Below, piece after piece: positions 2-32,584 of a DNA stretch of 64,000 bases. Within the stretch, counting starts at the first letter, position 1. Each line of letters begins with the position of its first letter. The notes beneath the pieces were generated by a model. It was not told the origin of the DNA. It did no database searches and saw nothing but the letters and a program-made list of their open reading frames with translations. The stretch spans positions 4,531 to 68,530 of the forward strand of contig CAZGQY010000002.1 in the NCBI GenBank assembly GCA_964528035.1. The letters are read 5' to 3'. Origin of the DNA: an uncultured Methylococcaceae bacterium. Lineage in GTDB: Bacteria; Pseudomonadota; Gammaproteobacteria; Methylococcales; UBA1147. The translations under genes were made by a program, and so were the position numbers.

Positions 2-2302
2 GAAGGAGAGGTTGCCGGCGGTGTTGTGATCATGCGCTTTGGTGAAAATGCCCAGGCGACCATTCGCGGTGTCCGGGCAAAACTCAGAGAACTCGAAAGC
101 GGACTGCCCGAAGGCGTTGAAATTATCCCGGTCTACGACCGCGGTGATCTCATCGAACGCGCCGTGGATACCCTAAACGACGCATTGACTGCGGAACTCA
201 ATATTGTCAGTGTGATCGTCGCATTGTTTTTGCTGCATCTCCGCTCGTCTCTGGTAATTATTATCACTTTACCGCTGGGCGTCCTGATGGCGTTTATCGT
301 CATGAAATGGCAAGGCCTGAATGCCAATATTATGTCGCTCGGCGGCATCGCCATTGCGATTGGTGACATGGTGGATGGCGCCATAGTGATGGTTGAAAAT
401 GCCCACAAACACCTCGCCGAAGACGCTGCTAACAAAAAGACTGAATTGACTGAAGGTGAACGCTGGCAAGCGATCGGCAGAGCTTCACGGGAAGTTGGTT
501 CCCCGTTGTTTTTCTCGTTGCTGATTATCACCGTATCCTTTATCCCAATCTTCACAATGGAGGCACAGGAAGGCCGCCTGTTCAGCCCGCTGGCTTTTAC
601 CAAATCCTACGCCATGGCTGCGGCAGCTATATTGACGGTCACGGTGGTACCGGTGTTGATGGGCTATTTCATTCGCGGCAAGATTATCCCCGAACAAAAA
701 AACCCCACCAACCGTTTTTTACACTATATCCATTCGCCGGTTCTGAAATTGGCGATGCGTTGGCGTAAGGTGACTTTACTACTTGCGATTTCGGTCATGG
801 TAACGACTCTTTACCCCTTGTCCAGGATAGGCAGCGAGTTTATGCCTCCCTTGGATGAAGGCGATATTCTCTATATGCCAACGGTGTTTCCGGGTATCTC
901 CATTACCAAGGCCAAAGAATTGCTGCAACAGACCGACAAAATTCTAAAGACCTTTCCGGAAGTCCATCATGTGTTTGGCAAAGTGGGGCGAGCCGAAACG
1001 GCTACCGATCCGGCGCCGTTGTCAATGATGGAAACGACGGTACGGCTCAAGCCCAAGAAGGTATGGCCTGATCCGGACAAAACCACCCAGGAGTTGATGG
1101 CTGAAATGGATAAGGCTATCCGCTTTCCCGGTTTGGCCAATGCCTGGACCATGCCGATCAAAACACGTATCGACATGCTTTCAACCGGTATTAAAACACC
1201 CATTGGGATCAAGGTTTCCGGACCTGATCTTGTGGTATTGCAGAGAATTTCAGAGGATATTGAACAGGCCATGAAGACCATACCGGAAACCTTATCGGCG
1301 TTCGGTGACCGGGCGGTCGGGGGCTACTATCTCGATTTTGACATCAACCGTGATGAGGCAGCCCGTTACGGGTTAACTATTGGTGATGTTCAGGATGTGA
1401 TACAAAGCGCTATTGGTGGAATGAATGTCACCGAAACGGTGGAGGGACTGGAGCGTTATCCGGTCAATCTTCGCTATCCTCGCGAGCTTCGTGATAATCT
1501 GGAATCGCTTCGTCGGGTCTTGATTCCCACCCCTACTGGTGCACAGATCCCACTGGTACAAGTGGCGGATCTGCAACTGCGCCGGGGACCGCCGTCCATC
1601 AAGAGCGAAGACGCCCGCCCCAATGCGTGGATCTATGTCGATATTACCACCTCCGACATCGGCGGTTATGTCGCCAAGGCGAAAAAAACCCTGGTAGATC
1701 GCGTTTCTATTCCGTCGGGCTATACCGTCACCTGGTCTGGCCAGTTCGAGTATATGGAGCGTGCGGCGCAGGGATTGCGCATTGTGGTTCCGATCACTCT
1801 ATTGCTGATTTTTCTGCTGCTTTATTTCACTTTCCGCAATATTGTCGAGCCGTTCATTGTCCTGCTGACGATTCCTTTTGGGCTCGTCGGCGGAATCTGG
1901 CTGGTTTATTGGTACGGATTCAATCTTTCGGTTGCCGTCTATGTCGGATTTATCGCGCTTGCCGGCACGGCGGCCGAAACTGGCGTCATGGTACTGAATT
2001 TTATCGATTTGGAAATCGCCAAAGTTCGGAAACTGAAGCATGGGCCATTGACTTCTCTGGAAATCAGGAATGCGGTTGAAGCTGCAACCGCTTTGCGCGT
2101 ACGCCCAGTGGCCATCACGGCTATTTCCACTATGGTGGGCTTGATCCCTATTATGTGGGCCACCGGTACCGGCGCCGATGTTACCCAACGCATTGCCGCA
2201 CCGGTAATGGGTGGAATGCTGACAGTGCTGATGCTGAGTCTGCTGGTATTTCCGGTCATCTACAGCTTTGCGCTCCAATTTCTGGAAAGGCGGCGGACGT
2301 GA
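2..2302 (+). CDS. cusA: CusA/SilA-type heavy-metal RND efflux transporter, 5'-truncated by window edge
   Basis: Frame is open from base 2 (EGEVAGGVVIMR...). RND motifs GIAIAIGDMVDGAIVMVEN, EFMPPLDEGDILYMPT and RIDMLSTGIKTPIGIKV; collinear with the CusA at 24023. Confidence 0.93.
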   Translation, partial: EGEVAGGVVIMRFGENAQATIRGVRAKLRELESGLPEGVEIIPVYDRGDLIERAVDTLNDALTAELNIVSVIVALFLLHLRSSLVIIITLPLGVLMAFIVMKWQGLNANIMSLGGIAIAIGDMVDGAIVMVENAHKHLAEDAANKKTELTEGERWQAIGRASREVGSPLFFSLLIITVSFIPIFTMEAQEGRLFSPLAFTKSYAMAAAAILTVTVVPVLMGYFIRGKIIPEQKNPTNRFLHYIHSPVLKLAMRWRKVTLLLAISVMVTTLYPLSRIGSEFMPPLDEGDILYMPTVFPGISITKAKELLQQTDKILKTFPEVHHVFGKVGRAETATDPAPLSMMETTVRLKPKKVWPDPDKTTQELMAEMDKAIRFPGLANAWTMPIKTRIDMLSTGIKTPIGIKVSGPDLVVLQRISEDIEQAMKTIPETLSAFGDRAVGGYYLDFDINRDEAARYGLTIGDVQDVIQSAIGGMNVTETVEGLERYPVNLRYPRELRDNLESLRRVLIPTPTGAQIPLVQVADLQLRRGPPSIKSEDARPNAWIYVDITTSDIGGYVAKAKKTLVDRVSIPSGYTVTWSGQFEYMERAAQGLRIVVPITLLLIFLLLYFTFRNIVEPFIVLLTIPFGLVGGIWLVYWYGFNLSVAVYVGFIALAGTAAETGVMVLNFIDLEIAKVRKLKHGPLTSLEIRNAVEAATALRVRPVAITAISTMVGLIPIMWATGTGADVTQRIAAPVMGGMLTVLMLSLLVFPVIYSFALQFLERRRT

Positions 2303-2855: not shown

Positions 2856-3136
2856 TCATTCGCTGCCAGCCAGGAAAAGTGAATACGAAGGCTGGTAGTC
2901 CCCGGGAGGCGTAGGTCATGTTGGATACCCGTCGTGCGGAGCGCCAGAGGGGATCCGAAATTACATCCGAAACGCCGTTCCGCCATTTGAGGCAGTCCTG
3001 GCGTAACGTTTATGAAGTACTATGTGGAGCCGTGACGAACGCAGGGCAGCCGGGGCTCAATGGTTGTCGCGTAGGCGAGTCGATTCTGGTTGACTCGGAT
3101 GTCCCGCAATCTTTCACGAGGTAGCGACTCACTTAT
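2856..3136 (+). repeat. ~280-bp dispersed element, copy A (putative structured ncRNA or IS110-type non-coding end)
   Basis: 2861-3136 matches 10318-10593 with 6 substitutions in 276 bp, and is homologous in blocks to the reverse complement of 6678-6970. Confidence 0.9.
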
Positions 3137-3164
3137 CCGAGGGTCGCGGTACAGGATGATTTAA

Positions 3165-3485
3165 ATGAAACTAAAGCGACTATACATCTTAGCTATTATG
3201 TTTTTAACCTTAGGCTCTTGCTCAATTCTCGCCGCTCCAAGTTGGTCGCCTTATGCCAATGTTGCTGAGATTAGAATATCTAAGGGCAATCTGTATGTGC
3301 AACTATCGGGCAATATACTCAACACCTGCGCCAACTTTGCAGTAGTCAATATTAGCTCGGAAGGAGCTCCTCAAATGTTCGCCATGGTGATGGCTTCCTT
3401 TACGAGCGGCAAACAGATTGGCTTATACCTCTCTGATAGATGCGATCCAACCTATTACTCCTTGCTTGGAACGAGAATCAGGTAG
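3165..3485 (+). CDS. Small secreted protein, two Cys, paralogue of next gene
   Basis: N-terminal signal peptide (LYILAIMFLTLGSCSILA). Shares the SW.PY...IS.G.LY...C...K.I.L...C...G.RI pattern with 3492-3905. Confidence 0.75.
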   Translation: MKLKRLYILAIMFLTLGSCSILAAPSWSPYANVAEIRISKGNLYVQLSGNILNTCANFAVVNISSEGAPQMFAMVMASFTSGKQIGLYLSDRCDPTYYSLLGTRIR

Positions 3486-3491
3486 GTAATA

Positions 3492-3905
3492 ATGAAGTCG
3501 CAGTGTGGATCGATGGTAGCTCGTTGGGCTTATATTGTATTGACGGTTCTTTCCCTGCATCTCGTCACACGATCTGCGCTTGCAGAAAAGACGATCGAGC
3601 AACCGACTTCAGTATCAGCACCAGCCCAAACCACTAAAGATGCGACCGAAAGCTGGGGTCCATACGAACATTTGAGCGTCGTTGAAATATCCAATGGCCA
3701 CTTATATTTGAAATCACCTTCTTATACTGTTTGTAGCGCCGGAGGCTTTCTGGCACTAGACATGACTTCAGGCACGGAATGGATAGAGTATTACACTGCG
3801 GCTATGATGGCCAACGCCAAAAACAAGAGAGTTAGCCTGCGTATTAATAGCTGCAATAATTCGACCTACGTGCCAGCGATTGGTATTCGTTTGAACGGGC
3901 AGTGA
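3492..3905 (+). CDS. Small secreted protein, paralogue of previous gene (likely start ATG 3513)
   Basis: Signal peptide MVARWAYIVLTVLSLHLVTRSALA. Stop overlaps the next start (GTGATG). Confidence 0.75.
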   Translation: MKSQCGSMVARWAYIVLTVLSLHLVTRSALAEKTIEQPTSVSAPAQTTKDATESWGPYEHLSVVEISNGHLYLKSPSYTVCSAGGFLALDMTSGTEWIEYYTAAMMANAKNKRVSLRINSCNNSTYVPAIGIRLNGQ

Positions 3906-5401
3906 TGCAAAAACAAATTCGAGTTACCCTAATATTATTGATTTGCTTAGCCACCTTTGCTGGGACTTTATTTGCGTCAAACGAATATACTGCACTATTT
4001 CAAGATAATTTTGGTCCTATCAAAACCGTTAAGAGAATCACAGTAGATGGCACGCATGCCACCATTACGGACCTAAATGGCAATGAAACATCCGGTGATG
4101 CCTGCCAACTACTTGGTTGCGCTGGTTCTACCCTTATAATCGAAAACTTCAAGATCACAGCCACAGATATAGGCCCTGAAGAAGCTTGCATTCGGCTAAA
4201 AAATAGGTCGAACATCATCGTGCGCCATAACTTTATAGGGCCGTGTTCAGGCACTACGAAATGGATAGAAAGGGCATGGGCAATTTTGGCAACTGGCAAC
4301 GGCAATACGACCTCAATTAGTGTCGAAGAGAACAAATTTAGGGAGATTGAAGCTGGCGTGCGTCTCGATCGTCTAGAAGGCGGTGCATCGATAAGCAAAA
4401 ACACCTTTTATGAGTTAGATACTACGGTCAACCTAAAGACAGGCGTGATCAGCTTAAAAGATGTTAGGGGAGCAGGTAATAGAATTGAATATAACCAGAT
4501 TATCATTAGCACAGAAAACTGTTCGAAAGTAGCCTATGACAACCCAGATTTTGATACCATAAGTGTATACAACAGTCGTGGCACAGCCGCTTCGCCAATC
4601 CAGATCGTTGAAAATCGGGTGCATGGCAGCAGTTGCCCCAGTGCACCACCACCTGGGCGCCTTCGTTCAGGGGCAGGCATCATTGTTGATGGTAAGTGCG
4701 TCGATCTATCAGGGGGCAATGGCGCCTTAGATCCAAATAAGTTATGTTTAGAAAGACCGCAAGACCATTGGAATGGTTACATCCACATTAAAAACAATAC
4801 CTTAGTTAATGCCGGACCGCAACAGACGATCGTTATTAGTGGTGGCCGAAATATAGCCGTCGAAGGTAATCGAATTTATACTAAAAGCACTACCTATTCG
4901 AATCCAATAGTTTATTCTCATTTTCAACCTATAGGCATGTCTGATTATTGGATCACTGTCTAATTTAAAAATGGCGATACTGTCGCTGCGAGCGCAGATG
5001 ATTGTAGTTCGGTTGGTGGCACAACTTGCCCATATATGCGCCAGGGGTCGTGCTATAACGTCACATTTAAGGACAATAAAATACAATTCCTCAGAAATGG
5101 AACTCCCGATCCTTCTGTGTACATCCCGCATGTGAATGAGTGGGATGAAAACTATGTCTATGGTACTAACCCACACATGCCGCCCACCCCACGTAGGCCA
5201 GACGACAAACCACCACCATGCCCAGACGGAAAACTAACGAAACCATGCGAGGGCTATAACACCTGTTGCGCTGGCGAGTTCAAAAACGGATGGTGTGCTG
5301 ATTTTTATGAAGCGCCAAGCAACTACAACCGCAATCCCTTAAAGGGAACGGGCAATGTCTATTCCGACTTTAGTTTAACGTCTGAGATTTTGATCAAATG
5401 A
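3902..5401 (+). pseudogene. Secreted right-handed parallel beta-helix protein interrupted by one in-frame TAA (4961-4963)
   Basis: Signal peptide and beta-helix repeats (NIIVRHNF, SISVEENKF, NRIEYNQI, IHIKNNTL, IAVEGNRI). After the TAA the same frame stays open (FKNGDTVAAS...CPY) and joins ORF 5036-5401, which has another repeat (NVTFKDNKI). Confidence 0.75.
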
Positions 5402-5832
5402 GGAAATAGAGCAATAAAAAAACGGTAGTTTTAGTCCAATCAGAATATAATAATCGACCTGTAAATTGTCAATTTCGGTTGGGACCAATCGGGGGGATAT
5501 TAGGCGAGAATGAACATCCTCCAATAACCGGAAACTGTCCTGAGTTGCTTTTCACCCAAGTACGACACTTAACGCCGTATGTATTTGATAATAAAAGACC
5601 TGTGGTGAGGAAATGGCATTACACGGCGTCGATCGCGGGTTTTGTTCCTCCTAAATGCTTGAATAAATCGAGCTGTTCAGCATATAGATAATCGTAAAAA
5701 TACTGCGATAATTGATCAGGGAATTTGAGGGTTGAAGACTATTTAAATTTGTATATTATCCGTGAACGGGAAGATATCCCTTTCAGACCTACAAAGATCA
5801 AATCTTAACTTTGTGATTGCGATCATGTTTTT

Positions 5833-5870
5833 GGACAAGATGTCCGAATCCGAATAATGACTTGTTAGGC
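5833..5870 (+). other. Right arm of an attC-like site
   Basis: ...TAATGACTTGTTAGGC with core GTTAGGC at 5864-5870, 7 nt before the ATG at 5877. Resembles the right arm at 7977-7993. No clean left arm found. Confidence 0.45.
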
Positions 5871-5876
5871 GTACAA

Positions 5877-6575
5877 ATGAAACTTTACAAATTTAGGTCA
5901 TTCACTCCATTCGAGTACTTGGCCGATATTTTCGTTCACGGTCGGCTATTTTGCTCTCCGTATCAAAATCTCAATGATCCGTTTGAAGGTGTCTTCATCG
6001 CTTTGATTCCTACGGACTTCGGTCGTGGATTTGGACTAAATTTCGGAATGGGAGGCACTGCTGAATTGTTGAGGACTGTCGATGACATTGACGGAGATGC
6101 CATTGCCAACAAACGAGTATGCAGTCTTTCAAAATCGTGGACTGATGTTCGCATGTGGTCACATTATGCCGATGGTCATAGAGGAGTGGCCATTGAGATC
6201 GATTTCAATGGGCTAGAAGACGAAGTTCGTGAGGTGCAGTACATCGACTCCATCGAAAAGTTTGCGTCAGGTATACTTGCCGAAAGCCCAGATGCCGGTG
6301 CATTGTTGTGTAGAAAGACATTCCATTGGGATTACGAGCAGGAATTTCGGATCCTCGGTAGCGGAGAATATTTTCAGATTGAAGGCCGTATTGGGAAAGT
6401 CTATGTAGGATCGCGGATGCCGGCCAACCACAAGAACCTCTTGCGACAACTCCTACCTTTGGGCACTCGACTGGTGGATACAGAGTTGGAGAAAAATGAC
6501 ATTACCGTTCGTGAGACTCACAGTAGAGCTCTCGATCAAGGCGAGAGTGTTGCAAACAAAGGCAATCGGCGGTGA
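5877..6575 (+). CDS. DUF2971-family protein (cassette-like ORF)
   Basis: Motifs LYKFRS, LNDPFEG, VCSLS, MWSHYADGHRGVAIEIDF and K..HWDYEQEFR. ATG 5877 is in frame with the track ORF. Confidence 0.85.
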   Translation: MKLYKFRSFTPFEYLADIFVHGRLFCSPYQNLNDPFEGVFIALIPTDFGRGFGLNFGMGGTAELLRTVDDIDGDAIANKRVCSLSKSWTDVRMWSHYADGHRGVAIEIDFNGLEDEVREVQYIDSIEKFASGILAESPDAGALLCRKTFHWDYEQEFRILGSGEYFQIEGRIGKVYVGSRMPANHKNLLRQLLPLGTRLVDTELEKNDITVRETHSRALDQGESVANKGNRR

Positions 6576-6677
6576 TTGTGCCGTTCACAATATTACACAG
6601 GCGCTTGCCTGTGCCTAAATCAAGTACTGACTTGTTTACGCTGTAAAGCGCGAATGCTCCAGGACGTTATCCCGGTT

Positions 6678-6970
6678 ATAAGCGAGTCGCTACCTCGTGA
6701 TAGATTTCGGGACATCCGAGTCAACCAAAATCGACTCGTCTACGCGACAACCATTATTGCCCCGACCGTCCTGCGTCCGCGCCGCTTCGCCACACCATTG
6801 CAAGCTCGGCGCAGGCTACACAACACTCCCTCAAATGACTGGACACGATTATTCGGATGCCTACTTTGTTTTCCCTCTGGCGCGATTCGCACGCCGGAAA
6901 AACAGTGCGGCCTGATCGTTATCGGGGACTCATCGCCTTCGTTTTACTCTCCATGGCGTTCAGCGAATGA
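6678..6970 (-). repeat. ~290-bp dispersed element, copy B (diverged, inverted)
   Basis: Reverse complement shares ordered blocks with copy A (TCATTCGCTG, ACGAAGGC, AGTCCCC, GCGCCAGAGGG, CATCCGAA, CATTTGAGG) and a near-identical 3' ~75 nt ending GAGGTAGCGACTCGCTTAT. Confidence 0.85.
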
Positions 6971-7031
6971 AGTTTCAACTACCGGATTGCGCCGGTCGCG
7001 AGTCTATCGCGTGACCGTCCGCAGATAGTCC

Positions 7032-7060
7032 ATTACTGACCATTCCAAATGGTCAATAAT
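7032..7060. promoter_or_regulatory. 13-bp inverted repeat upstream of the recombinase (candidate binding or recombination site)
   Basis: ATTACTGACCATT-CCA-AATGGTCAATAAT, one mismatch, 31 nt before the ATG. Confidence 0.6.
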
Positions 7061-7091
7061 TTGGTTCCTTTTTACAGAAGAGGAACTAATC

Positions 7092-7718
7092 ATGGATCAA
7101 TCTACCAACTCAAATAGTGAAAAAGAACCCTGGAATAAAGGCAAACTGGTGGGTCAAAAACCACCGCTAAATCTCAAAGAAATCTGGGCCATCCGGATCC
7201 GGTTGCAACTCGCAAATCGAATTCGTGACCTAGCCCTGTTCAATTTAGCCATCGATAGTAAATTGCGTGCCTGCGATCTGGTGAAGTTGAAAGTCCGAGA
7301 TGTATCTCATGGAGATCGAATTGCAAAAAGGACGATGGTGTTGCAACAAAAAACCAAACAGCCCGTCCAGTTCGAAATCATGCAACAAACGAGAGAAGCC
7401 ATTTTTCTGTGGATCAATCATGTCAATCTAAAACAAAATGACTACCTCTTTCCAAGCCGAATCAAAAATTCTCCCCATTTGTCGACGCGACAATATGCCA
7501 GGATTGTGGAATCATGGGTTGTATCCATAGGCCTTGATCCAGCAGCTTATGGGACACATTCACTTCGTCGAACTAAAGCGTCTTTGATATACCGACGGAC
7601 CAAGAATTTAAGGGCCGTGCAGTTGCTCTTAGGGCATACGAAATTGGAAAGTACCGTTCGCTACCTAGGGATTGAAGTTGATGATGCATTGGAGATGGCG
7701 GAACAAACCGAAGTTTAA
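7092..7718 (+). CDS. Small tyrosine recombinase/integrase (PWNKGKLVGQKPPL family), intact catalytic residues
   Basis: DSKLRACDL (R), QKT (K), GTHSLRRT (HxxR), LLGHTKLESTVRYLG (H, Y). 208 aa. RBS GAGGA. No IntI-type insertion domain. Confidence 0.93.
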   Translation: MDQSTNSNSEKEPWNKGKLVGQKPPLNLKEIWAIRIRLQLANRIRDLALFNLAIDSKLRACDLVKLKVRDVSHGDRIAKRTMVLQQKTKQPVQFEIMQQTREAIFLWINHVNLKQNDYLFPSRIKNSPHLSTRQYARIVESWVVSIGLDPAAYGTHSLRRTKASLIYRRTKNLRAVQLLLGHTKLESTVRYLGIEVDDALEMAEQTEV

Positions 7719-7735
7719 TAGCGGATTTTTATCGG

Positions 7736-7779
7736 AAGCGGCTGTTTTTAACAGTCGCTTTGTGCTCAGGAGCTGACGT
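7736..7779 (+). other. Hairpin plus palindromic site just downstream of the recombinase
   Basis: AAGCGGCTGTT-TTT-AACAGTCGCTT overlaps GTCGCTTTGTGCTCAGGAGCTGACGT; related motifs recur at 9936 and 10000. Confidence 0.55.
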
Positions 7780-7845
7780 ACGTGAAATTTTTCGCTTGCC
7801 CCAAGCTAAAAGTCAATAAGCGCCTTCAAGGTTTCTGTTAGAAAC

Positions 7846-7993
7846 TACTAACAACGTCATAATCTACGGAATTGGATATCATGTTGTTTTAGGATGATAT
7901 ACAGTTAAGCAATTGGACCGAATTCACAAAATCGTTGTCTTGGAAACGAAAAATTGGGAAGATATGTGGAAACTTTATAATTGCTTGTTAGCT
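7846..7993 (+). other. Candidate long attC site
   Basis: CTAACAA at 7848-7854 pairs with TTGTTAG at 7985-7991. Partial inner symmetry (CATAA/TTATAA, GATATC/GATATG). Precedes the ORF at 8025. Confidence 0.45.
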
Positions 7994-8024
7994 GCGTTTG
8001 GAGCATGGAGCTAGATTAATAACG

Positions 8025-8783
8025 ATGCTATATAAATTTACTCCCACCCTAGATATCGCTGAAAAAGTCTCTACTGGAATATTCCGCTTCTATGAATTAA
8101 CCAAGTATATAAAAATGGAAGATGAAGTGGGACGATCAGATCCAGAAGAGTGCTCGGTTAGTTTTCCTACTAAAGAATATGAAGAATTCCCAGACAAGCT
8201 ACCTATAGGTAGCTTCAGAGGCATTGAATTCAAATGTATTAGCACTGGAAATAACGAGGAACATATTAGGCAATATTTTGTGTTTTGCATGAGCACAGAA
8301 ATGGATAAAAAAGCAATTGGTGACTCTAGATATATTGTTGAACTTTATCGAGATAACTTTGATTTATTTATGCAGCTCCTAAACGAACCATTTGATGATT
8401 CTGCAAATCCCGAAGGTCACCAGTTCTTTAGTCATGGTGAGGTGAAGTACTACAACATACATAACCACCCTAAACCGTTTATAGGAAATAGGTGGCGTGA
8501 GGTGTTTGTAAAACACTCTGATTTTAATTATCAAAATGAATATCGGGCAGCCTTTTTTGCTTCAGATCACTTCTTTGATAGAATTTCAGGTAACCCCATG
8601 GTGATCGAGAAAAAAATATTCGATCAAAATAAGGAGCCAATGAGTTTTAATTTGGAGCTGTATGTTCAGTCAGGTATCGATGATGAGGGTTGGCGCTATA
8701 TTGAACTTGATATTTCAGGGTTCGCTGCCAATATAAGCCCTGAACAAAGTAACATTACAGAGCTTGTTGCTGAGATAACTTGA
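8025..8783 (+). CDS. Hypothetical cassette protein, distantly DUF2971-like
   Basis: MLYKF start, FVFCMS and VKHSDFNYQNEYR echo the DUF2971 motif order. Followed by a clear attC. Confidence 0.7.
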   Translation: MLYKFTPTLDIAEKVSTGIFRFYELTKYIKMEDEVGRSDPEECSVSFPTKEYEEFPDKLPIGSFRGIEFKCISTGNNEEHIRQYFVFCMSTEMDKKAIGDSRYIVELYRDNFDLFMQLLNEPFDDSANPEGHQFFSHGEVKYYNIHNHPKPFIGNRWREVFVKHSDFNYQNEYRAAFFASDHFFDRISGNPMVIEKKIFDQNKEPMSFNLELYVQSGIDDEGWRYIELDISGFAANISPEQSNITELVAEIT

Positions 8784-8796
8784 ACATTCAAGCAGC

Positions 8797-8862
8797 AGCT
8801 AACAAGGCCAGCCAGAGGGGCTTTCGCACTACGTACTCCCGCCCCTGCTGGCGGCGTTAGAG
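8797..8862 (+). other. Integron attC site (59-be type)
   Basis: Inverse core AGCTAAC and core GTTAGAG. Left arm GCCAGC[C]AG[A]GGGGC vs right arm GCCCCTGCTGGC gives two unpaired bases (G and T on the bottom strand), the canonical extrahelical pattern. Next ATG is 5 nt downstream. Confidence 0.85.
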
Positions 8863-8866
8863 CATC

Positions 8867-9748
8867 ATGCTACAGGATGCACCGCAGATAACCGAAGAAG
8901 ATCTTCAGAAATGCAGGGACACTGGCGACTATAGCCCCGTAATGTTCGAATGGTACAAGTTTGTGGCGGGTCTATGTGTCACGTTTTCAAACTTACTCCA
9001 AGAATCGCCCGTGATCCGTAAAGACATCTCAGAAAGAGACTACGGAATACTTATTGGCCTGATTAATCGGGCTTACCGATTAATGCTAACCAACGTGGCC
9101 CTTTCTCACGAAGGGGAATTCGGCGAATCTACAAGTATCCTTGATCGCTGCATATTCGAAAGCTGCGTCATTTTGAGTTGGCTATGTGCCACAAATACCG
9201 AAGATAGATTCGATCGATATGTTGCGTCAGGTCTTAGGACGGAGCTCGAGCTAAAGGACCAAGTTAATCTCGCCCTTGAGAAAAGAGGCGGAGATGTTCT
9301 CTTAATCGAGAAACGAATGTTGGACTCTGTTGCAGACTGTATTGCGGAAGCGGGTTTTGTTGACGATCAGATTCGAGAAATGAAACCGCTTCCTAATCTA
9401 GCAGCGATGCTAGAAGCCCTTGGTTACAAGCGCTTTGCTTATACAGCGGGCCAAAGAATCGGATCGCATCATGTTCATGGTACTTGGGTAGGGTTAAGAA
9501 ACCATTTCATTGAGAAAGAGGAAGATACTGGTCGTTATCGCGCACGACAGAAAAGTTACACTCATATCAACCAATATGTTTACATTACGAGTATTGTATT
9601 AGCTGCACTATCTAAGTTCGTTGATTTCGTATTTGAAGATGCCGATGAGGAAAAGGGCGAGATATTAAATCTATTTGAATCTACGGACGAAAATATACGA
9701 ATGCTAAATATTGAAATCGTTGGTGGGGATTTCGATGCGATTGCCTAA
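8867..9748 (+). CDS. DUF5677-like (HEPN-type) cassette protein
   Basis: ILDRCIFESCVILSWL (R..FE) and GSHHVHGTW motifs. Promoterless start directly after the attC. Confidence 0.7.
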   Translation: MLQDAPQITEEDLQKCRDTGDYSPVMFEWYKFVAGLCVTFSNLLQESPVIRKDISERDYGILIGLINRAYRLMLTNVALSHEGEFGESTSILDRCIFESCVILSWLCATNTEDRFDRYVASGLRTELELKDQVNLALEKRGGDVLLIEKRMLDSVADCIAEAGFVDDQIREMKPLPNLAAMLEALGYKRFAYTAGQRIGSHHVHGTWVGLRNHFIEKEEDTGRYRARQKSYTHINQYVYITSIVLAALSKFVDFVFEDADEEKGEILNLFESTDENIRMLNIEIVGGDFDAIA

Positions 9749-9800
9749 AGTGTCCACGAAAGTCGTGCTAGATCACGCACCTATTTCGCAGGCGTTAACC
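9743..9800 (+). other. Degenerate attC candidate
   Basis: GCCTAAA overlaps the stop codon and GCGTTAACC lies 58 bp later; inner arms pair poorly. Confidence 0.3.
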
Positions 9801-9845
9801 AATTCAATATAAGGCCCGCTGTCCGATTCAGGTTGACTCTTGCCT

Positions 9846-10020
9846 GTCGCGACTCTATCCCGTGACTGCCCGGAGTTAGTCCTTTCCAGTCAGACGAAAT
9901 ATTTAACCCATGATTCGAGCAGCTTGGAGACGATTGACCGGTTGTGCTCAAGTGCGGACGTTCGCGTATCGATGAAAGTCTTATTGCGACCGGCTACAGT
10001 CTGTGCCAAAAGCAGGCGTT
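9846..10020 (+). repeat. Cluster of short palindromic sites related to those flanking the recombinase
   Basis: 9846-9872 matches 6995-7021 at 23/27. 9936-9962 and 10000-10020 share TGTGC(T/C)..A..GC.G(A/G)CGT with 7754-7779. Confidence 0.6.
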
Positions 10021-10317
10021 CGTTAAAAATTCCCTATCTGTGTTCCTATAAGCAAAAAGCTAGACGCGCGCTCTAAGCCGTTGGGGCATTGGAAAGAAGT
10101 ATCACTGGCACTGAAAGAACATTTAGATTTTTAACGCCAGAGATTTCTTCAAAATGGGATTTGTTGCCAATTTGGCCAAATTCTATCGCGATCAAATTGA
10201 TATCGAATAAAAACAATTGTATCGTATCAATGACAAGACTTTTTCTAAAAATGAGCATGGGTTTTCGGTCTACAAATGGGGCTTAATGTAGACGAGGCGT
10301 CACTTAATTGCTGCGAC

Positions 10318-10593
10318 CGCTGCCGGCCAGGGAAAGTGAATACGAAGGCTGGTAGTCCCCGGGAGGCGTAGGTCATGTTGGATACCCGTCGTGCGGAGCG
10401 CCAGAGGGGATCCGAAATTACATCCGAAACGCCGTTCCGCCATTTGAGGCAGTCCTGGCGTAACGTTTATGAAGTACTATGTGGAGCCGTGACGAACGCA
10501 GGGCAGCCGGGGCTCAATGGTTGTCGCGTAGGCGAGTCGATTCTGGTTGACTCAGATGTCCCGAAATCTTTCAGGAGGTAGCGACTCGCTTAT
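10318..10593 (+). repeat. ~280-bp dispersed element, copy C
   Basis: Direct repeat of 2861-3136, 270/276 identical. Confidence 0.9.
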
Positions 10594-10813: not shown

Positions 10814-11161
10814 ATGCGGAAATTCTTGTCGGTACTTCTAATGGTTGCCATCTACTGGACGTCCACCTGGATGGTGACGGACATTCACGATGTTCTTTCA
10901 ACCGACGGTGATCAACCGCACCCGATTTTTTCCGTCTTTTCCACCGATCTCGGGACAATTCTTCAGTCAGATGCGGACGATACTTCCCCATCTGAATGCC
11001 AAGTATGCAGTTATGACCACGGTGGTCATTTTGGTCAAATGCTGACTGCAACCCCTCAAATTCTTAACTTCAATCCAATTTACGGAGAATCTGGTTCTTA
11101 TTATCCATCGAACTGGTTTTCCCTTACCCTGCCCCCAAAATACCGTCCGCCAATCACCTAA
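10814..11161 (+). CDS. Small exported Cys/His protein (DUF2946/CzcI-like) upstream of czcCBA
   Basis: Hydrophobic N-terminus, CQVCSYDHGGH, C-terminal PPKYRPPIT; typical position ahead of a metal RND operon. Confidence 0.65.
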   Translation: MRKFLSVLLMVAIYWTSTWMVTDIHDVLSTDGDQPHPIFSVFSTDLGTILQSDADDTSPSECQVCSYDHGGHFGQMLTATPQILNFNPIYGESGSYYPSNWFSLTLPPKYRPPIT

Positions 11162-11606
11162 CGGCGTCATTCTAAGGCTGTCTGTGCAGTAGTAGAAACG
11201 TGCAATTAGCGTTGTGTTTGGCAGGTCATAATCGGACAATCGACCTCGCACTGAATCCGAATGTTCCGGATACAGTCGGTCTGCGATTTAAATAGTTCCG
11301 ATTCACACTAAACTCCTGATGAAGATCTGATTTATTCGAAGATTTTCGCGATACCGGGATGATTCGCCAAAACCAATCAACTTAACGATTGATTTCATAC
11401 GCTTGACCGCGAAGGTTTCCTGTCCACACGACACTTCCGCCTCTCAGGGATTTGTTAATCTCCCTACGCACACTGCTTAGTCGGTAGAAATACGCCCTTT
11501 CAGATCGATCAATGGCCCTGCGTAGCAGGACAACTCTTCTGCACGATCTCGTTATTCTCAGGCAACCGCCTGGAAATTTGTTTGTATTAACCGATCGGAA
11601 TTTTTT

Positions 11607-13038
11607 ATGAGCGCTAAATATTTTTGCTTCCGTCAACCAGTTTCACCCGTCACCGGTTGTGGCATCTGTTTTCAAAACAACAATGTTTTAGGATTAACAC
11701 GACCTGGAAAATTATTCATTATTCTTTTCGGTTTCGCTTTGCAAGTCATAATTCCTGTAAACAGCGAACCGCTTAAACTCGAGTACACCTCGCCTCCATC
11801 GCCTGACATGCCGGCGAAATCAATCGAGATTAATGAACCCCGCGGGGAGTTATCGTTGGCTACGGCTTTGTCGCTGGCTTTGTCGCACAATCCAACACTA
11901 GCTGCTGCATCCCGAGAAATCCAAGTACAGGATGGAGTCGTCCAGCAAGCGGGACTTCTGCCTAACCCGGTATTCGGCGTATCGGCTCAGAACTTCGCAA
12001 ATTCAAGATTGCAGGGAGTTGACGGTGATGCGCTTAATTGGAGCCTTTCTCAAACTGTTCTGCTCGGCGGTAAGCGCGCCAAAGCGATCCGGGTCGCGGA
12101 GCTTGGTCGGGAGCTTTCCGTATGGGACTACGAAAGCAAACGAATGGATCTATTAGCCGAAGTTGTGCTGAGTTATATCGGTCTTGTAAAGGCTCAGCAG
12201 GGATTGAAACTTGCCGATGGCCTGGTAAAGCTTGCCGACCATATGATGGAGGCGGTCACTGTCCGTGTCAAAGTCGGCGAAACTTCACCAGTGGATGAGA
12301 CACGCGCCCGGGTAAGTCTGGCTTCCATACAAATCGAAAAGCAGCGCGCGGAGCGAGCATTGGCAACGGCGCGAAAACGGCTGGCGGCCACCTGGGGCAG
12401 TGCCTCTCCGGAATTTGAAGTTGCCCAAGGCCAACTGGAAACGGCAAAACCAATTCCTTCTTTCAGTGCTTTGATGGATCGCATTGCTCAAAACCCCCAA
12501 TCTTGCCCGCTGGGCCAGCGAGACGATTCAGAGACAGGCGTCCATTGATCTGGCTAGTAGCCGTGCGATTCCGAATCTGACGATCAGCCTCGGGGTTCAG
12601 CAATACCTAAAGACCGGTGACAATGCTTTAGGTGCGGGAATTTCGATACCCATACCCCTTTTCAACCGCAATCAGGGCAATATTCTCCAGGCCAACCGGC
12701 GTTTCGACAAAGCCCTGGATCGACAACGGGAAACTCAAGTTTTGGTCAGCACAACTCTGAATACAATCTATCAGCAATTTTCCGCTGACTACGCCGAGCT
12801 CAGCATTCTTGAAACAACGGTCCTGCCGGGTGCGCTAAGCGCCTTCGAGGCCGTGCAGGAAGGTTATCGCCGGGGCAGATTTAACCTGTTGAATGTACTC
12901 GATACACAGCGCACGCTGTTTGACGCCAAAATACAGCATCTAAGGGCTTTGGCAAGTTATCACCAATCGAGGATCAAGATACAGCGTTTGATCGGAGAGC
13001 CTCCTGAAACGGCGCAAAGCTTGGAGGTCAAAAATTGA
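11607..13038 (+). pseudogene. czcC: CzcC-like TolC outer-membrane factor split by a +1 frameshift
   Basis: ORFs 11607-12548 and 12484-13038 encode consecutive TolC halves. Removing one C from the C5 run at 12494-12498 restores RIAQNPNLARWASE. Confidence 0.85.
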
Positions 13039-14516
13039 AAAATCTACAAGCAGTTGCATGCCAGATGCTCAATATTCCATTCACGATGACAGTCGGTCAA
13101 AAATCAGGCGGCCTTCCATCGGAACCACCAGTGAGCTTTGGATCTTCAGTCAGAACAGATAAGCGAGTCGAAATCATGGATCATTTAGAAAGTAGCTTAA
13201 TAAGCCCCCTGATAGGCTTAATTCTTCTTATTCTTGTACCTATTCATGGGCAAACAAACCAACTGGATTACAAGAATTCTAATCCGACGATGCCAAATAA
13301 GGAACACGTGAACGAAATTGAGGAGCAACACGCACACGACAAACATGCTAACGAAAGCGGCAAAAACGCCCGTGAAGGCGAAAATCATAACGATCATGAT
13401 GTCGGTAAAGAAAAAATGGACCATGAAAACGAACAAGACGAGCATAACTCGCTCAAATTCAGTCCGGATGTACTTAAAGAGTTTGCCATCAAATTGGCAC
13501 AAGCGAATTCCGGGTCCATTAGGGAAACATCGCTCCTGTCGGGCGAAGTAGTTGTTGCTCCCGACAAGCTTTTTCACGTTATCCCTCTGGCGGCCGGCGT
13601 GGTCCGCAAAGTCTTCAAACAATTAGGTGACAGCGTCAAACAAGGCGATTTATTGGTAACGCTTTCCAGTCGGGAACTGGCTAATGCTAAAACAAAGCTC
13701 GTTGCTGCCAACAGCCTCTTGCGGTTAGCTGACGCGAGTCTGAAACGGGAGCGCGAACTGTATAAGAAAAAGGTCACGGCTAAACGGGAATATCTTGAAG
13801 CAAAACAGGCTCAAACTAAGGCGGCTATCGAGCTTAAATCAGCCAAACAAGGCCTTTTGGCCTTAGGGTTATCCATCCAGGATGTAGTTTCAGTCCTTCG
13901 TTCTAGTGGCGACGATTTGACGCGTTATGAACTTCGTTCTCCGGCAGAGGGCATCATCATTTATAAACACGCAGTTCATGGTGAAATTCTGAACACTGAA
14001 ATCAAAGCTTTCACTATCGCGGATCTGGATCGGGTATGGATTAATTTGACCGTTTATCAAAAGGATTTGCCTCTTATTCATAAAGGTCAGGCCGTACTGA
14101 TCTCTACACGCCATGGTTCGTCGGCGGAACAGTCAGAATTTCGCGGTGTTATCGATTGGATCAGCCCGACCCTTTCCGAATCCACCCGCAGCGGCACGGC
14201 GCGGGTCATACTTGATAATGTAAACAGGCGATGGCGTCCCGGGTTGTTCGTGAATGGAGCAGTTGTCATAGCTAAAACCGCAGCCAAAGTCGTCATTCCG
14301 CGAAGCGCATTGCAGAATATTGAAGACCGGACCGTGGTCTTCGTCCAGGAAGGCGACGAATTCGAGCTGCGGCCGGTACAACTGGGCCGAACAGACACCC
14401 ACCGGGTAGAAATCGTGCAAGGTCTTGAGTCGGGCGAAACCTTTGTCAGCAAAAATGCTTTTACTCTCAAAGCACAAATGTCAAAGAGTGCATTTGGCGG
14501 CGGACACTCGCATTAG
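13035..14516 (+). CDS. czcB: CzcB-type membrane fusion protein with His-rich N-terminus (likely start ATG 13176)
   Basis: GDSVKQGDLLVTLSSRELA, YELRSPAEG, LDNVNRRWRPGLFV; His/acidic tract; ends GGHSH. Confidence 0.9.
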   Translation: MKNLQAVACQMLNIPFTMTVGQKSGGLPSEPPVSFGSSVRTDKRVEIMDHLESSLISPLIGLILLILVPIHGQTNQLDYKNSNPTMPNKEHVNEIEEQHAHDKHANESGKNAREGENHNDHDVGKEKMDHENEQDEHNSLKFSPDVLKEFAIKLAQANSGSIRETSLLSGEVVVAPDKLFHVIPLAAGVVRKVFKQLGDSVKQGDLLVTLSSRELANAKTKLVAANSLLRLADASLKRERELYKKKVTAKREYLEAKQAQTKAAIELKSAKQGLLALGLSIQDVVSVLRSSGDDLTRYELRSPAEGIIIYKHAVHGEILNTEIKAFTIADLDRVWINLTVYQKDLPLIHKGQAVLISTRHGSSAEQSEFRGVIDWISPTLSESTRSGTARVILDNVNRRWRPGLFVNGAVVIAKTAAKVVIPRSALQNIEDRTVVFVQEGDEFELRPVQLGRTDTHRVEIVQGLESGETFVSKNAFTLKAQMSKSAFGGGHSH

Positions 14517-14536
14517 ATTTCGGGAGAATTTATAAC

Positions 14537-17500
14537 ATGATTGATAAAATAATTGCGTTTTCATTGCAAAGCCGAATGCTGGTGATCGCCATGGCGGTGC
14601 TGATTATGGCCGCTGGATATAGCAGCTACCAAAACCTTCCGGTGGATGCATTCCCCGACGTTTCTCCCAACCTGGTGCAAATATTTACGGTCACCGAAGG
14701 CTTGGCGCCGGAGGAAATCGAAATGTACGTCACGTACCCGGTGGAAGCGGCGATGACCGGGTTGCCAGGGATTCAAAAAATCCGTTCGGTCTCCAATTTC
14801 GGGCTATCGGTGGTCAATATTTATTTCGAAGACGATATGGACATTTACTTTGTCCGTCAACTGGTCAACGAACGCCTGCGAGAAGCCCGCGATCAGATCC
14901 CCGGAGGATTTGGTGAACCGGGGATGGGACCTATTTCCACCGGTATGGGCCTGGTGCTGTTTTACTATCTGAAAGATGACACGGGAAAATATACGTTGGA
15001 AGAACTCCGAACCTTTCAGGATTGGATCGTCAAATTCAATCTGCAAACCGTCAAGGGTGTGACCGAGGTACTCGGTATCGGCGGTTTCGAAAAACAGTTT
15101 CAGATTGTCGTACACCCGGAGTCTCTACTACGCTACGACGTGACCCTCAGCGATATTATTGATCGCGTTAAAGCCAATAATCTGAACGTCGGCGCTCAGT
15201 ACCTGGAAAAAAATGCTGAGCAGTTCATTATCCGCTCGGTCGGATTAGCGACGGGAATTCCCGATATCAACAACATCATTATTAAAACCGTGGATGGTCG
15301 TCCGGTTTATCTAAGGAGTATCGCCGATGTCAAAATCGGTGGCGCCATCCGCCGGGGTTTACAAACCCGCAATGGCGAGGGTGAAGTAGTCGCGGGCATG
15401 GCCATTAAACTTTTCGGTACCAACGCGTCGACCGTCATTGAGCGGGTGGAAAACCGGATCTCGGAAATCAATAAGAGCCTACCCGATGGCGTCAATATTG
15501 TGCCCTATTATCAGCAGAAGGATATCGTCGAAGCGGCGGTCAGCACAGTCAGGAGTGCTCTGATTCAAGGCATCGTCCTGGTGGCTTTAGTGCTTTTTGC
15601 GTTTATGGGCGGATTCCGGCCCAGTTTGGTAGTGGCCATGGCTATCCCGTTTTCGGTGCTTTTCGCCTTTATCGCCATGGGCCGGTTGGAAATGTCCGCC
15701 AACCTGATGTCACTGGGTGGCCTGGCCATCGCCATCGGCATGATGGTGGACGGTACTATTGTCATGGTGGAAAATGTCGACCGAATGCTGCGCGAAGCCG
15801 ATCCGAACGAACCCCGACTGCATGTCGTTGGCCGAGCCTGCCGGGAGGTTGGGCAACCGATTCTGTTCGCCATCTCCATCATCATTATCGTGTTTCTGCC
15901 GCTATTTACCCTGGAAGGTGTGGAAGGTAAGACCTTTCGGCCCCTCGCCTATACCGTCGCTCTGGCGATGCTGGGTTCTTTGATCTATGCGTTATTTTTA
16001 GCGCCAGTGTTTTCAGATCTGATCATGCGAAAGGAAAAGCCCCGCGCCGATGGCAAGCCGAACCTGGATGTGCGTATTCTTAATGCGATCCTTAAACCCT
16101 ACCGCCCGATGGTTGCTTATTTCGTTGACAACCGAAAAATGGCGATCGCGCTTTCGGGAGGGCTTTTTCTAATCGGCGCCGTGCTTTTTCCTTTTCTCGG
16201 CGCGGAATTTACCCCGAAACTGCGCGAAGGCACCATTGTTGTACGTCTCACCATGGCGCCATCCATCGCTATCACTGAAAGCAGACGCAACACCTTGATC
16301 GTTGAGCGTCGTTTGTTAAAGATCCCTGAAGTGATCGAAACCACTAGCCGCGTTGGCCGTGGGGAAGTTGGCGCCCATGCCGACCCGATCAATTCGGCGG
16401 AAATGTATGTGATCTTAAAGCCCAAGGACGAATGGCGACGCCCGGGCGATCAAGAGTTTATCGAAAATGAGATTCGAAACACGGTGAGCGAACTGCCGGG
16501 TATTACCGCTAACATTACCCAGCCCATCGAAATGACCGTTGATGAACTATTGGAAGGGGTGCGGGCCGAGTTGGCAATCAAACTGTTCGGCGACGATTTA
16601 GGCATCTTGAAAAAGAAAGCCGATGAAATCGCGGCCGTAGTTAGACAGGTGCGTGGCGCCGCCGATCTTCAGGTCGATCAGGTCTCCGGCACACCCCAAC
16701 TGGTGATTCGCCCGGATCGCCATGCTATTGCCCGCTACGGTTTGAATCTGGCCGATATCCAGGAAGTCATTCGAAGTGCGGTGGGTGGTGTCACCGCCGG
16801 TCAGGTTTTCGAAGGGATTCGCCGCTTCGATATCTATGTGCGCTATGAAACCGATGCACGCGATACCGCGGAAGCGATTCAAAACATTCTCATCACCGGA
16901 CCGGACGGTATCCGGGTGCCTCTTTCGCAATTGGCCACGGTCAAGGAAATCGTCGGTCCGCGTCAGATCACCCGCGAAAATAACCAGCGGTTTATTACCG
17001 TCCAGGCCAATGTGATCGATCGCGATATTGTTTCTTTCGTGGAAGAAGCGCAGCAGGCAATCGACGATAAAGTAAAGTTACCGCCGGGCTATCTAACCAC
17101 CTGGGGCGGGCAGTTTAGGTTGCAACAGGAAGCGAATAAGCGATTAGCGGTGGTCATTCCGGTGACTTTGTTGATCATTTCACTGCTGCTTTATACCAGT
17201 TTCAATTCGATTAAGAATGCTGCACTGATATTGTTAAATATCCCCTTAGCGCTAGTGGGCGGTATCATCGCTCTGTGGATCAGTGGGCAAAACCTGTCGG
17301 TGCCTTCTTCGGTAGGCTTTATCGCCCTGTTCGGCATTGCACTTGAAAACGGCATGGTGCTGGTTACTTATCTCAATCAACTGGTGCGTAACGGTATGCC
17401 GATCGATGAAGCCTCAATCAGTGGCGCTTGTCTCCGGGTACGGCCGGTATTGATGACAGCGGTAACTACAGCGCTGGGGCTTTTACCCCTATTGGCAGCG

Positions 17501-31965: not shown

Positions 31966-31968
31966 CGT

Positions 31969-32361: not shown

Positions 32362-32584
32362 TGACTTCTGCCTCCCATGCTCGGTCCCTGGCTTCTTCGA
32401 ATGGGATGTATTCTTTAGCGTACTGGTTTAGACTACCGGCCAGGTCTCCGAGTGGTTCTAAGCGGACTTGGCCGTTTTCAATGACAACTTTAACGACATT
32501 CGAACCCAGAAATTCACGGACTTTCTTGGGTAAGGTGATCTGACCCTTTTTCGAGAGTTTGGCTGTTTTTTCATAATCGATCAT
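32339..32584 (-). CDS. vapB: AbrB/MazE/SpoVT-type antitoxin
   Basis: AKLSKKGQITLPKKVREFLG...VRLEP; overlaps the PIN gene start. Confidence 0.85.
   Translation of the reverse strand: MIDYEKTAKLSKKGQITLPKKVREFLGSNVVKVVIENGQVRLEPLGDLAGSLNQYAKEYIPFEEARDRAWEAEVNDKYSHR

Follow-up and report, generated by a model that had tools for sequence, protein, structure and literature searches.

How did a block of genes unrelated to metal resistance come to lie between two metal-efflux operons, and does it move as one piece? This question is raised by a stretch of 64,000 nucleotides from an uncultured Methylococcaceae bacterium (assembly GCA_964528035.1, contig CAZGQY010000002.1, positions 4,531 to 68,530 of the forward strand), which is called the window below. 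Two 276-nt direct repeats, A and C, enclose this block, and a third copy, B, lies between them in inverted orientation. An earlier note on this DNA had proposed that the block was inserted, or could be excised or amplified, as a unit through these repeats. Our analysis confirmed the observation and partly supported the unit reading. The repeats bracket the block as described, although they are not borders of its own but members of a dispersed family of mobile elements, here termed E, and the best-documented recombination at the locus is that of a short site, D, and not that of the 276-bp repeats. The positions of the features on which this argument depends are as follows.

26 to 2302, plus strand: 3' part of cusA (758 codons), coding for a heavy-metal RND pump; left chromosomal arm.
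2861 to 3136, plus strand: copy A of E (element proper 2861-3135, from 5' CGCTG to 5 nt past GCGACTC).
6679 to 6965, minus strand: copy B of E, full-length, diverged save for its 3' 78-100 nt.
7011 to 7031 (feature to 7040), plus strand: left inverted-repeat motif of the recombinase mini-element, GTGACCGTCCGCAGATAGTCC, present again at 9862-9882.
7063 to 7091, plus strand: hairpin including the Shine-Dalgarno sequence of the recombinase gene.
7092 to 7718, plus strand: tyrosine recombinase of 208 amino acids, catalytic domain only (Pfam Phage_integrase, PF00589).
7760 to 7775, plus strand: right motif of the mini-element, TTGTGCTCAGGAGCTG (16 nt), 42 nt past the recombinase stop codon and with the same core as D.
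9862 to 9957, plus strand: site D, a gene-less miniature of the recombinase element (left plus right motif), crossover at 9945-9950.
9951 to 10317, plus strand: spacer of 366 bp between D and C, joined to D' (see below) instead in other assemblies.
10318 to 10593, plus strand: copy C of E.
10814 to 17668, plus strand: right chromosomal arm with a 115-aa open reading frame (ORF), czcC (two ORFs), czcB, and czcA.

Copies A and C are 98% identical with a start-to-start spacing of 7457 bp, and their six mismatches (offsets 7, 14, 236, 246, 256, and 270) fall only towards the ends, so that the central 221 nt are identical. For comparison with other assemblies, contigs assembled from sibling samples were retrieved from JGI, ENA, and Logan by exact-protein look-up, and these matched the window at 100% identity in the cus arm, cargo, spacer, copy C, czcC, and most of czcB; the region is also present in runs SRR5211068 and SRR6056609. 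Unitig depth was analyzed in three subsurface metagenome runs (X1, X2, and one more), in which all four flank junctions occurred at genome depth and every junction of the window was reproduced, and k-mers from the A/C center reached about twice the genome depth (13.8 vs. 7-9 in X1 and 20.6 vs. 12-14 in X2). This indicates that the repeat is real and present twice, and not an assembly artifact, which the earlier note had named as a finding that would refute its reading. Its description of direct repeats around non-metal cargo was correct, as was the placement between metal RND genes (a CusA-type pump on the left, the 115-aa ORF followed by czcCBA on the right). Copy B was first visible as an inverted arm of 78 nt at 6678-6755, 94% complementary to A and C, and the family profile extended it to full length (nhmmer 6678-6966, minus strand, E-value 1.5e-58), the alignment showing many substitutions and indels outside its 3' 78-100 nt. 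B is thus an inverted copy, as had been noticed; the A-B or B-C inversions that it was expected to enable were seen in none of six assemblies, all of which were 100% colinear. Repeat and profile searches of the 64-kb window revealed no E copies beyond A, B, and C.

At site D, where the left and right motifs are only 60 bp apart, the contigs documented an exchange with a second site, D', at another locus. Four types of junction were found: J1, in which the cargo and D are joined to the spacer, C, and czc (the window, L082, L083, and a 442-nt unitig in X1); J2, in which the cargo and D are joined to a vapC-like PIN gene, a 69-aa ORF, tRNA-Leu, and RNase R (L081, a 137-kb contig, L292, and L293); J3, in which a sequence X and D' are joined to the spacer and C (L285, L287, and L288); and J4, in which X and D' are joined to the vapC-like gene and onwards to RNase R (L290 and L291). 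Sequence X, to the left of D', consists of an ISL3 transposase, a type I restriction-modification locus with Fic and Abi_C, a GSDH-like gene, and two small ORFs. The reciprocal set, drawn from 11 contigs, is therefore complete. Each assembly looked up held J1 and/or J4, or else J2 and/or J3; each pair was found with both its members in one assembly only (J1 and J4 in ERZ27249630, J2 and J3 in ERZ27251152), and run X1 contained J1, with J2 as a minor form. Roughly half of the assemblies have D attached to the other locus, which parts A and the cargo from the spacer, C, and czc.

The arms were 99.6-100% identical across the junction classes, and the point of exchange could be narrowed down. D reads TGACCGGTTGTGCTCA and D' reads TGACCGGTATTGCTCA; the TTG/TAT dimorphism always travels with the left arm, and divergence is total right after TGCTCA (AGTGCGGAC on the spacer side vs. 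GGAGCTGCC on the vapC side), so that the exchange must fall within the 6 bp at 9945-9950. Since the right side offers no usable homology, the junctions bear the signature of conservative site-specific and not of homologous recombination. The core TGCTCA stands in the context TGACCGGT[TG/AT]TGCTCA, homology between the left arms of D and D' spans about 70 nt, and both right arms have a loose motif, RGWGCKGMCRTTC, in common. We regard site-specific exchange at D as very likely. The vapC side is chromosomal (rnr, rlmB, and sucA), and reading L081 by eye places a tRNA-Leu gene some 1.5 kb past the site. Past the vapC-like gene and the 69-aa ORF, the same contig (L081:7786-7947) contains a palindrome, GCTCAAC..CGTTAAAC, and a third copy of the left motif (GTGACCGTCCGGATTTAGTCC), followed by tRNA-Leu and RNase R; to judge from these letters, the D' side looks like a small array of cassette-like units. 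A scan of metagenome contigs for D-like sites gave no match, although L082 is a JGI contig.

The core and right arm of J2 (the junction of D with the vapC side in L081) form 16 nt that are identical to the sequence 3' of the recombinase gene (TTGTGCTCAGGAGCTG). On account of this identity we propose the 208-aa protein as the catalyst, and it probably acts at D. The protein matched its Pfam family with an E-value of 3.1e-20 (73 bits vs. a cut-off of 27) and contains the box motifs LRACDL (58), HSLRRT (156), LLGHT (179), and VRYLG (189), which comprise the box I arginine and the H-x-x-R...H...Y residues. Assignment to the better-known classes was rejected: NCBIfam models gave 18 and 15 bits for integron integrases (cut-offs 265 and 435; 208 aa compared with about 320 aa for IntI), 30 and 19 bits for FimB/FimE-type invertases (cut-offs 222 and 221), and 63 and 46 bits for XerC/XerD (cut-offs 335 and 330). 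At least 8000 relatives at 70-88% identity were found in Pseudomonas, Burkholderiales, Methylococcales, and others, including plasmids such as pMOL30, and no conserved neighbors were detected at the recombinase loci inspected (L001-L080). In the relatives, GTCCGC-N4-GGCCGGTTAGCGACC precedes the gene, and a hairpin together with the reverse complement of that motif follows it, so that in hundreds of genomes the gene has inverted repeats of about 24 bp on either side; in the window, a strong hairpin at 7736-7760 likewise precedes the right motif. Such a solitary recombinase gene with inverted repeats looks like a self-contained recombining or invertible mini-element. The Shine-Dalgarno hairpin covaries in the upstream regions of about 30 relatives, as judged by eye. 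A literature search yielded no account of this short recombinase family. A fixed partnership of the recombinase with E was dismissed as well, E being present at 2 of 80 recombinase loci and the recombinase at 3 of 86 E loci.

Whether the block as a whole can be absent was addressed with contigs from the cus side. One of these, L295 (megahit, ERZ27249630, 12.4 kb), runs from cusC, cusB, and cusA through one E copy directly into czcC, czcB, and czcA. Its E copy is a hybrid of pattern AACCCC, with the A variants at offsets 7 and 14 and the C variants at 236-270, and its flanks are exactly that of A on the left (GCATCATT) and that of C on the right (TCTTAGTT), as expected of a crossover between A and C or of an empty site. 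The same assembly holds L291, with an empty D' site, and L083, which begins within A and ends within C (40 nt short of one period); L083 (7417 bp) and L082 (7462 bp) each represent about one period of 7457 bp. The cus-side contigs of five other assemblies end inside E, as a balanced repeat predicts, and the passage of L295 through it suggests that the cus-E-czc path is dominant in that sample. Together, these data give the cargo-free form moderate support. In X1, the cargo was found at about genome (that is, flank) depth and the joint of D with the spacer predominated, which indicates that the window arrangement is real there and not a mis-threaded free circle. The empty site that the earlier note had suggested looking for was thus encountered at the contig level, though not in related species, in which CusA was at most 84% identical and czc was never located downstream of cusA. 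Sequence divergence as a marker of mobile versus resident DNA was uninformative, the arms being 100% identical between samples except for a patch from 14368.

The explanation to which we give a slight overall preference is the following. A and C would be sister copies of mobile, non-coding E, which inserts exactly and without target duplication; a single E copy could part cusCBA from czcCBA in this Methylococcales chromosome, and in the window a 7457-bp module would sit inside that copy. The module would comprise E, the four secreted-protein ORFs, the PDC-S31/DUF2971 gene, B, the recombinase gene with its flanking motifs, two cassette-like ORFs, D, and the spacer. It might be lost or gained whole by recombination between A and C over their 221 identical bases, presumably of the homologous, RecA type, and this step would leave or use a hybrid single copy. 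Independently, D would recombine reciprocally and conservatively with D' beside the vapC-like gene, tRNA-Leu, and rnr, with strand exchange in TGCTCA and with the 208-aa recombinase as the candidate catalyst, the same core being present 3' of its gene. We lean toward a real unit-wise loss or gain through A and C, and the block is very probably dispensable.

Several points weigh against this explanation. The single-copy form is represented by only one contig, and as the identical 221-nt center exceeds the assembler k (141 or 31), a short-circuit through the repeat may yield the same contigs: a collapsed direct repeat could give a path from cusA through E to czc together with a separate cargo contig. 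Insertion or excision as a unit thus accords with the single-copy and one-period contigs, which an assembly short-circuit would also produce. L288 is threaded the other way, from D' and the spacer through C (CCCCCC) into the czc flank, and a circle junction would be indistinguishable from the window's own joint of D and spacer. The block is not always intact, given that half or so of the assemblies have D attached elsewhere. The link between the recombinase and D is the shared core and a position about 2.2 kb away, and nothing else. Moreover, the cargo was assembled in steps and B is an independent insertion, so that "unit" describes the present behavior of the block and not its origin.

The exchange between D and D' itself admits two readings. 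If D and D' face opposite ways on one chromosome, it would be an inversion spanning at least about 190 kb (known arms of 54 kb and 137 kb); alternatively, the 7457-bp module would be relocated, sitting at D' when opened at D and between cus and czc, as in the window, when opened at E. These two readings predict different pairings of 5' and 3' E variants in the samples with J2 and J3, and the 221-nt center is longer than any k used. The threading of L288, D'-spacer-C(CCCCCC)-czc, favors inversion, and the path of L295, cusA-E(AACCCC)-czc, fits inversion and relocation alike. It is possible, though doubtful in our judgment, that the module is a small integrative element, the circle of which enters D' (attB) by the vapC-like gene and tRNA-Leu with D as attP, and that the window shows this circle integrated in the chromosomal E copy between cus and czc. 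In that case an arrangement of X and D' joined to spacer-E-cargo-D and then to the vapC-like gene is predicted. The four junction classes would make up the classical attP, attB, attL, and attR set, the module contains a recombinase gene about 2.2 kb from D and a copy of the core, one-period contigs exist, a single sample provided both the empty cus-E-czc contig and the empty D' site, and the tRNA-Leu read by eye stands about 1.5 kb beyond the site. However, this explanation requires a mis-threaded L288 and two different recombination routes, the chromosomal depth of the cargo in X1 with its dominant D-spacer joint implies that a free circle is not the main form there, and a 208-aa enzyme with neither an arm-binding nor a core-binding N-terminal domain is atypical for an island integrase.

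We consider it unlikely that the block from A to C is fixed, that L295 is a short-circuit, and that the sole real change is an inversion, at least about 190 kb in length, between D and D' in opposite orientations. Core genes lie by all arms (czc is followed on the right by argS and priA, the vapC-like gene by rnr, rlmB, and sucA), a single reciprocal event would account for J1 with J4 versus J2 with J3, L288 is threaded from D' through the spacer and C into czc, and five of the six cus-side contigs end in the repeat. Yet megahit normally stops at a balanced repeat node with two paths in and two out, whereas L295 runs for 12.4 kb, and the sample from which it comes also gave a one-period cargo contig and an empty D' site. 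The argS contigs are outside the 137-kb vapC-side contig and provided no evidence of linkage: a look-up of ArgS placed the gene on other contigs, and this attempt at linkage was uninformative. It is very improbable that A and C are independent insertions of a high-copy element around older DNA, their orientation and similarity having no mechanistic meaning, for although E is multi-copy and mobile and its conserved k-mers occur at 70-600x in the same metagenomes, the A/C center stands at only about 2x genome depth, which makes A and C the only members of that subtype; they differ only toward their ends, around a shared stretch of 221 bases, and a hybrid single copy exists.

In our preferred explanation, the module is lost or gained through sister copies of E, a mobile element. 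By comparison of its copies, E is a multi-copy, non-coding, structured element of about 275-310 nt found in Methylococcales, Sedimenticolaceae, and Chromatiales, and we hold with high confidence that the family exists and has the fold described here. A search pattern was derived from the blocks conserved between A and B (TCCGA-N5-CGT-N5-7-CATT-N38-68-GCAGGRCRGYYGGGGC), and a degenerate-pattern scan of species-representative genomes with it yielded more than 118 copies; an exact scan of genome contigs for the A/B core gave no match. Hosts include Methylobacter (at least 10 copies in M. tundripaludum SV96), Methyloglobulus, and Methylomagnum, as well as Sedimenticola (many copies in Ca. S. endophacoides), Thiodiazotropha, Chromatiaceae, and a tubeworm endosymbiont. 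The ends are sharp, with CGCTG (or CGCTA) at the 5' side and the 3' end 5 nt past GCGACNC, and have no terminal inverted repeats; these boundaries were fixed by cases of exact excision and by the empty site of copy B. In an alignment of 31 sequences, 96.5% of cells were paired, compared with 29-51% when the 3' partners were slid by 1-3 columns, and 22 of the 35 base pairs showed compensatory double changes, a level of covariation reached by none of 500 shuffles. Among the helices are a long-range pairing of GUCCCCRR with YYGGGGC and one of GUCGCG with the 3'-terminal GCGAC, and as G-U pairs occur at several positions, the fold can be assigned to a single strand. Folding of the single sequence of A was no better than that of shuffled sequences (z -0.6, -1.3), so that the structure is visible only by comparative analysis. 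Rfam 15 gave no gathering-score match in the window or in 15 E-family loci, and its covariance models found nothing over A, B, C, or a Sedimenticola copy at E-values up to 10. A literature search revealed no account of E.

E inserts both within and between genes; its ends are exact, and the target is not duplicated. In Ca. S. endophacoides the element is exactly 300 nt long, and long ORFs are restored when it is excised from the C of CGCT to the G of CTCTTG: after removal, the Sigma54_activat domain of a sigma-54 activator was matched over its full length (1-168/168) across the junction, and a PAS-GGDEF protein (PAS domain) and an ABC transporter were likewise restored. In these cases of exact removal the junctions have zero duplicated bases. 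Such an absence of duplication is expected of an IS200/IS605-derived miniature (PATE), as are a conserved target of 4-5 nt at the left end and a TnpA or TnpB gene in the neighborhood; the bases before CGCTG are variable, and at the E loci neither TnpA nor TnpB is near any copy. Many identical 300-nt copies interrupt intact-looking genes of Ca. Sedimenticola endophacoides (L090, L104, L110, L115, L119, L123, L127, L131, L142, and L164), from which we infer a recent burst of E insertions in this clam symbiont. Five gene-internal copies are in sense and two in antisense orientation (one in a PLD gene of M. tundripaludum, at L140, and one in L119), so E is no obligate intron, and a self-splicing intron, for which sense copies alone would be expected, was rejected on these two. 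Relative to flanking genes, orientation was 26 versus 25; occurring in both orientations and without a conserved neighbor, E is not a leader or riboswitch. As a cis-regulatory leader it had been considered since A ends 29 nt before an ATG, as does one Methylobacter copy, but orientation to the downstream gene was 25 vs. 26 across 86 copies. No conserved protein neighbor exists among these 86 copies, and no transposase partner was found at these loci. A small protein gene in the repeat was ruled out too: A, B, and C have no conserved ORF, and the 68-aa ORF of A and C is lost in B through indels.

In the endosymbiont of Escarpia laminata, an IS110-family insertion sequence (L106:2674-4365; Pfam DEDD_Tnp_IS110 plus Transposase_20) with its own inverted ends, TGGTCTCCTCCC and GGGAGGAGACCA, is inserted exactly in the loop of the conserved hairpin of E, CGAGTCGATTTTG^GGGACTTGG. 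With ends of its own in this loop, it takes E as its target, and E is not a derivative of it; the hairpin thus behaves like the REP or attC targets of that insertion sequence family. E as an IS110-family miniature with a bridge RNA was rejected, as the sole IS110 transposase met with E (in L106) has its own inverted ends and interrupts the element. In RNA-run assemblies (X5-X8; L044:7706-7966, M. tundripaludum SV96), E k-mers had a depth of 400-2500 against 10-19 in the flanks, with edges sharp at the element ends; this excess, 25-100 times the flank depth in M. tundripaludum RNA-seq contigs, is confounded by copy number. Some M. tundripaludum copies lie within highly expressed transcripts. 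As a tentative possibility, E might be a new class of mobile structured element whose fold is the working part, as a single-stranded DNA or RNA intermediate or as a guide- or ribozyme-like RNA, with the 208-aa recombinase and its gene-less miniatures such as D as a second uncharacterized system acting in nature.

In integron mobilization units and integrons flanked by miniature inverted-repeat transposable elements (MITEs), two direct non-coding miniature copies surround a recombinase and cassettes, and this would be the closest known architecture by analogy. The locus resembles it in that two same-orientation non-coding copies of about 280 bp enclose a recombinase gene and cassette-like ORFs and in that the block would be either wholly there or wholly missing. 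However, E has neither terminal inverted repeats nor a target-site duplication, a transposase partner was not found at the E loci, any loss or gain would proceed by recombination between the copies and not by transposition, and the recombinase is not IntI. A composite transposon was rejected because A, B, and C encode no transposase (no conserved ORF, no conserved neighbor in the 86 copies) and because target-site duplication is absent, the flank of A (..GCATCATT) and that of C (TCTTAGTT..) sharing nothing. A MITE was rejected on the ends, CGCTG...GCGACNC plus 5 nt with no terminal inverted repeats, and on exact removal that restores ORFs without duplicated bases. With integrative elements the locus has in common all four junction types, the short common core TGCTCA, a recombinase gene nearby, and a tRNA gene near the site; it differs in the enzyme, which is 208 aa long and consists of the catalytic domain only, and in the "attB" and "attP" left arms, which are homologous over about 70 nt since both are miniature copies of the recombinase's own flanks. 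As core genes lie on all arms, an inversion would be equally possible. FimB/FimE-class switches are similar in protein size (about 200 aa) and in that the gene lies between inverted repeats, here of about 24 bp in hundreds of genomes, but the score was 30 bits against a cut-off of 222, no inversion of a gene segment was observed, and the recombinase family is 70-88% conserved across classes in unrelated contexts. Like the ERIC, REP/BIME, Correia, and PATE-type repeats, E is short, non-coding, multi-copy, folded, found in either orientation, and sometimes an IS110-family target, and it resembles IS200/605 miniatures in causing no duplication; unlike these families, it is larger, has a multi-helix fold kept by compensatory changes across Methylococcales, Sedimenticolaceae, and Chromatiales, and lacks a conserved target tetranucleotide, a TnpA/TnpB neighbor (at E loci), and an Rfam match.

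If the explanation given above is true, a 7.5-kb module with a candidate phage-defense gene and secreted proteins can enter or leave a metal-resistance region via dispersed repeat copies, which would act as landing pads, and a widespread, unstudied family of short recombinases gains its first candidate site, at which naturally occurring products confine the crossover to 6 bp. E would in turn be a well-supported structured element absent from Rfam, common in methanotrophs and sulfur-oxidizing symbionts and gene-disrupting in Ca. Sedimenticola endophacoides. A practical warning is that assemblies of such genomes thread E copies differently.

The other genes of the block, all of whose ORFs are on the plus strand, are as follows.

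3165 to 5401, plus strand: four ORFs (3165-3485, 3492-3905, 3902-4963, and 5036-5401), the first three with a signal-like hydrophobic N-terminus.
5877 to 6575, plus strand: DUF2971 protein (Pfam E-value 1e-7; PADLOC PDC-S31, a phage-defense candidate family, E-value 2.4e-51).
8025 to 8783, plus strand: cassette-like ORF of 252 aa with no family match.
8797 to 8862, plus strand: attC-like imperfect palindrome GCTAAC...GTTAGAGC, read from the sequence.
8867 to 9748, plus strand: cassette-like DUF5677 protein (Pfam E-value 2e-16).

The ORFs of 3165-5401 had no NCBIfam or PADLOC match, and the third gave a weak Pfam Beta_helix match (E-value 7e-4, under the cut-off). Folded as single-stranded DNA, the palindrome at 8797-8862, the one convincing attC-like site, reached z of about -2 on both strands, and the sites after the DUF5677 gene and after the vapC-like gene (L081) folded no better than shuffled sequence. 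A 172-nt contig from a hydrothermal vent metagenome (X4) joins position 6678 straight to 6966 and is an exact empty site for B, so that the DUF2971-recombinase junction has a relative that lacks the E insertion. The cargo is a mosaic of separate modules (B, the attC-like cassette, the recombinase mini-element, and D) and was thus built stepwise, even though it may now behave as one piece.

In the left arm, the window CusA (ACR_tran domain, Pfam) is 82-84% identical to that of Methylobacter and other Methylococcaceae, and in L295 cusA is the third gene of an OEP/MFP/ACR_tran operon. To the right of copy C, Pfam OEP and CzcB matches support czcC and czcB. The 115-aa ORF had no Pfam or NCBIfam match, so the label "DUF2946-like" that it had been given was not confirmed, and exact-protein look-up found no database record for it or for CzcA. 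Farther right of czc are the core genes cydAB, H+-PPase, PFK, argS, and priA; cydAB, H+-PPase, argS, and priA rule out the window as a joint with a plasmid or an integrative and conjugative element. The remainder of the window is chromosomal, with a P-type ATPase, a second cusCBA, type I restriction-modification genes, and ars genes. Between the metal-resistance and ars genes, at 29225-35423, lies a type I restriction-modification locus (HsdS, HsdM, and HsdR) with a PIN-domain gene and a Schlafen/AlbA_2 gene. The czcC gene (11607-13038) is split into two overlapping ORFs of 313 and 184 aa, the 313-aa call recurring in L295 and L296, and may represent a frameshifted outer-membrane factor. From 14368, at the 3' end of czcB, to 17110, assemblies otherwise 100% identical to the window diverge by about 5%, with at least three haplotypes that have the first 27 variant positions in common, which suggests a recombination boundary or mixed strains within czcB/czcA.

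In Methylomarinum, a Bathymodiolus symbiont, and a gammaproteobacterial metagenome-assembled genome (L214, L216, and L230), the 115-aa ORF and czcCBA are divergent and upstream of cusCBA. The cus-czc neighborhood is old but variable in arrangement, czcCBA lying downstream in the window and divergent upstream in some relatives. Finally, the left ends of the four placeable cus-side contigs (about 7.6 kb, plus L295) nearly coincide about 1 kb upstream of cusC (L295:1-50; L299-L301), which suggests a further repeat or structural breakpoint just left of the window start.

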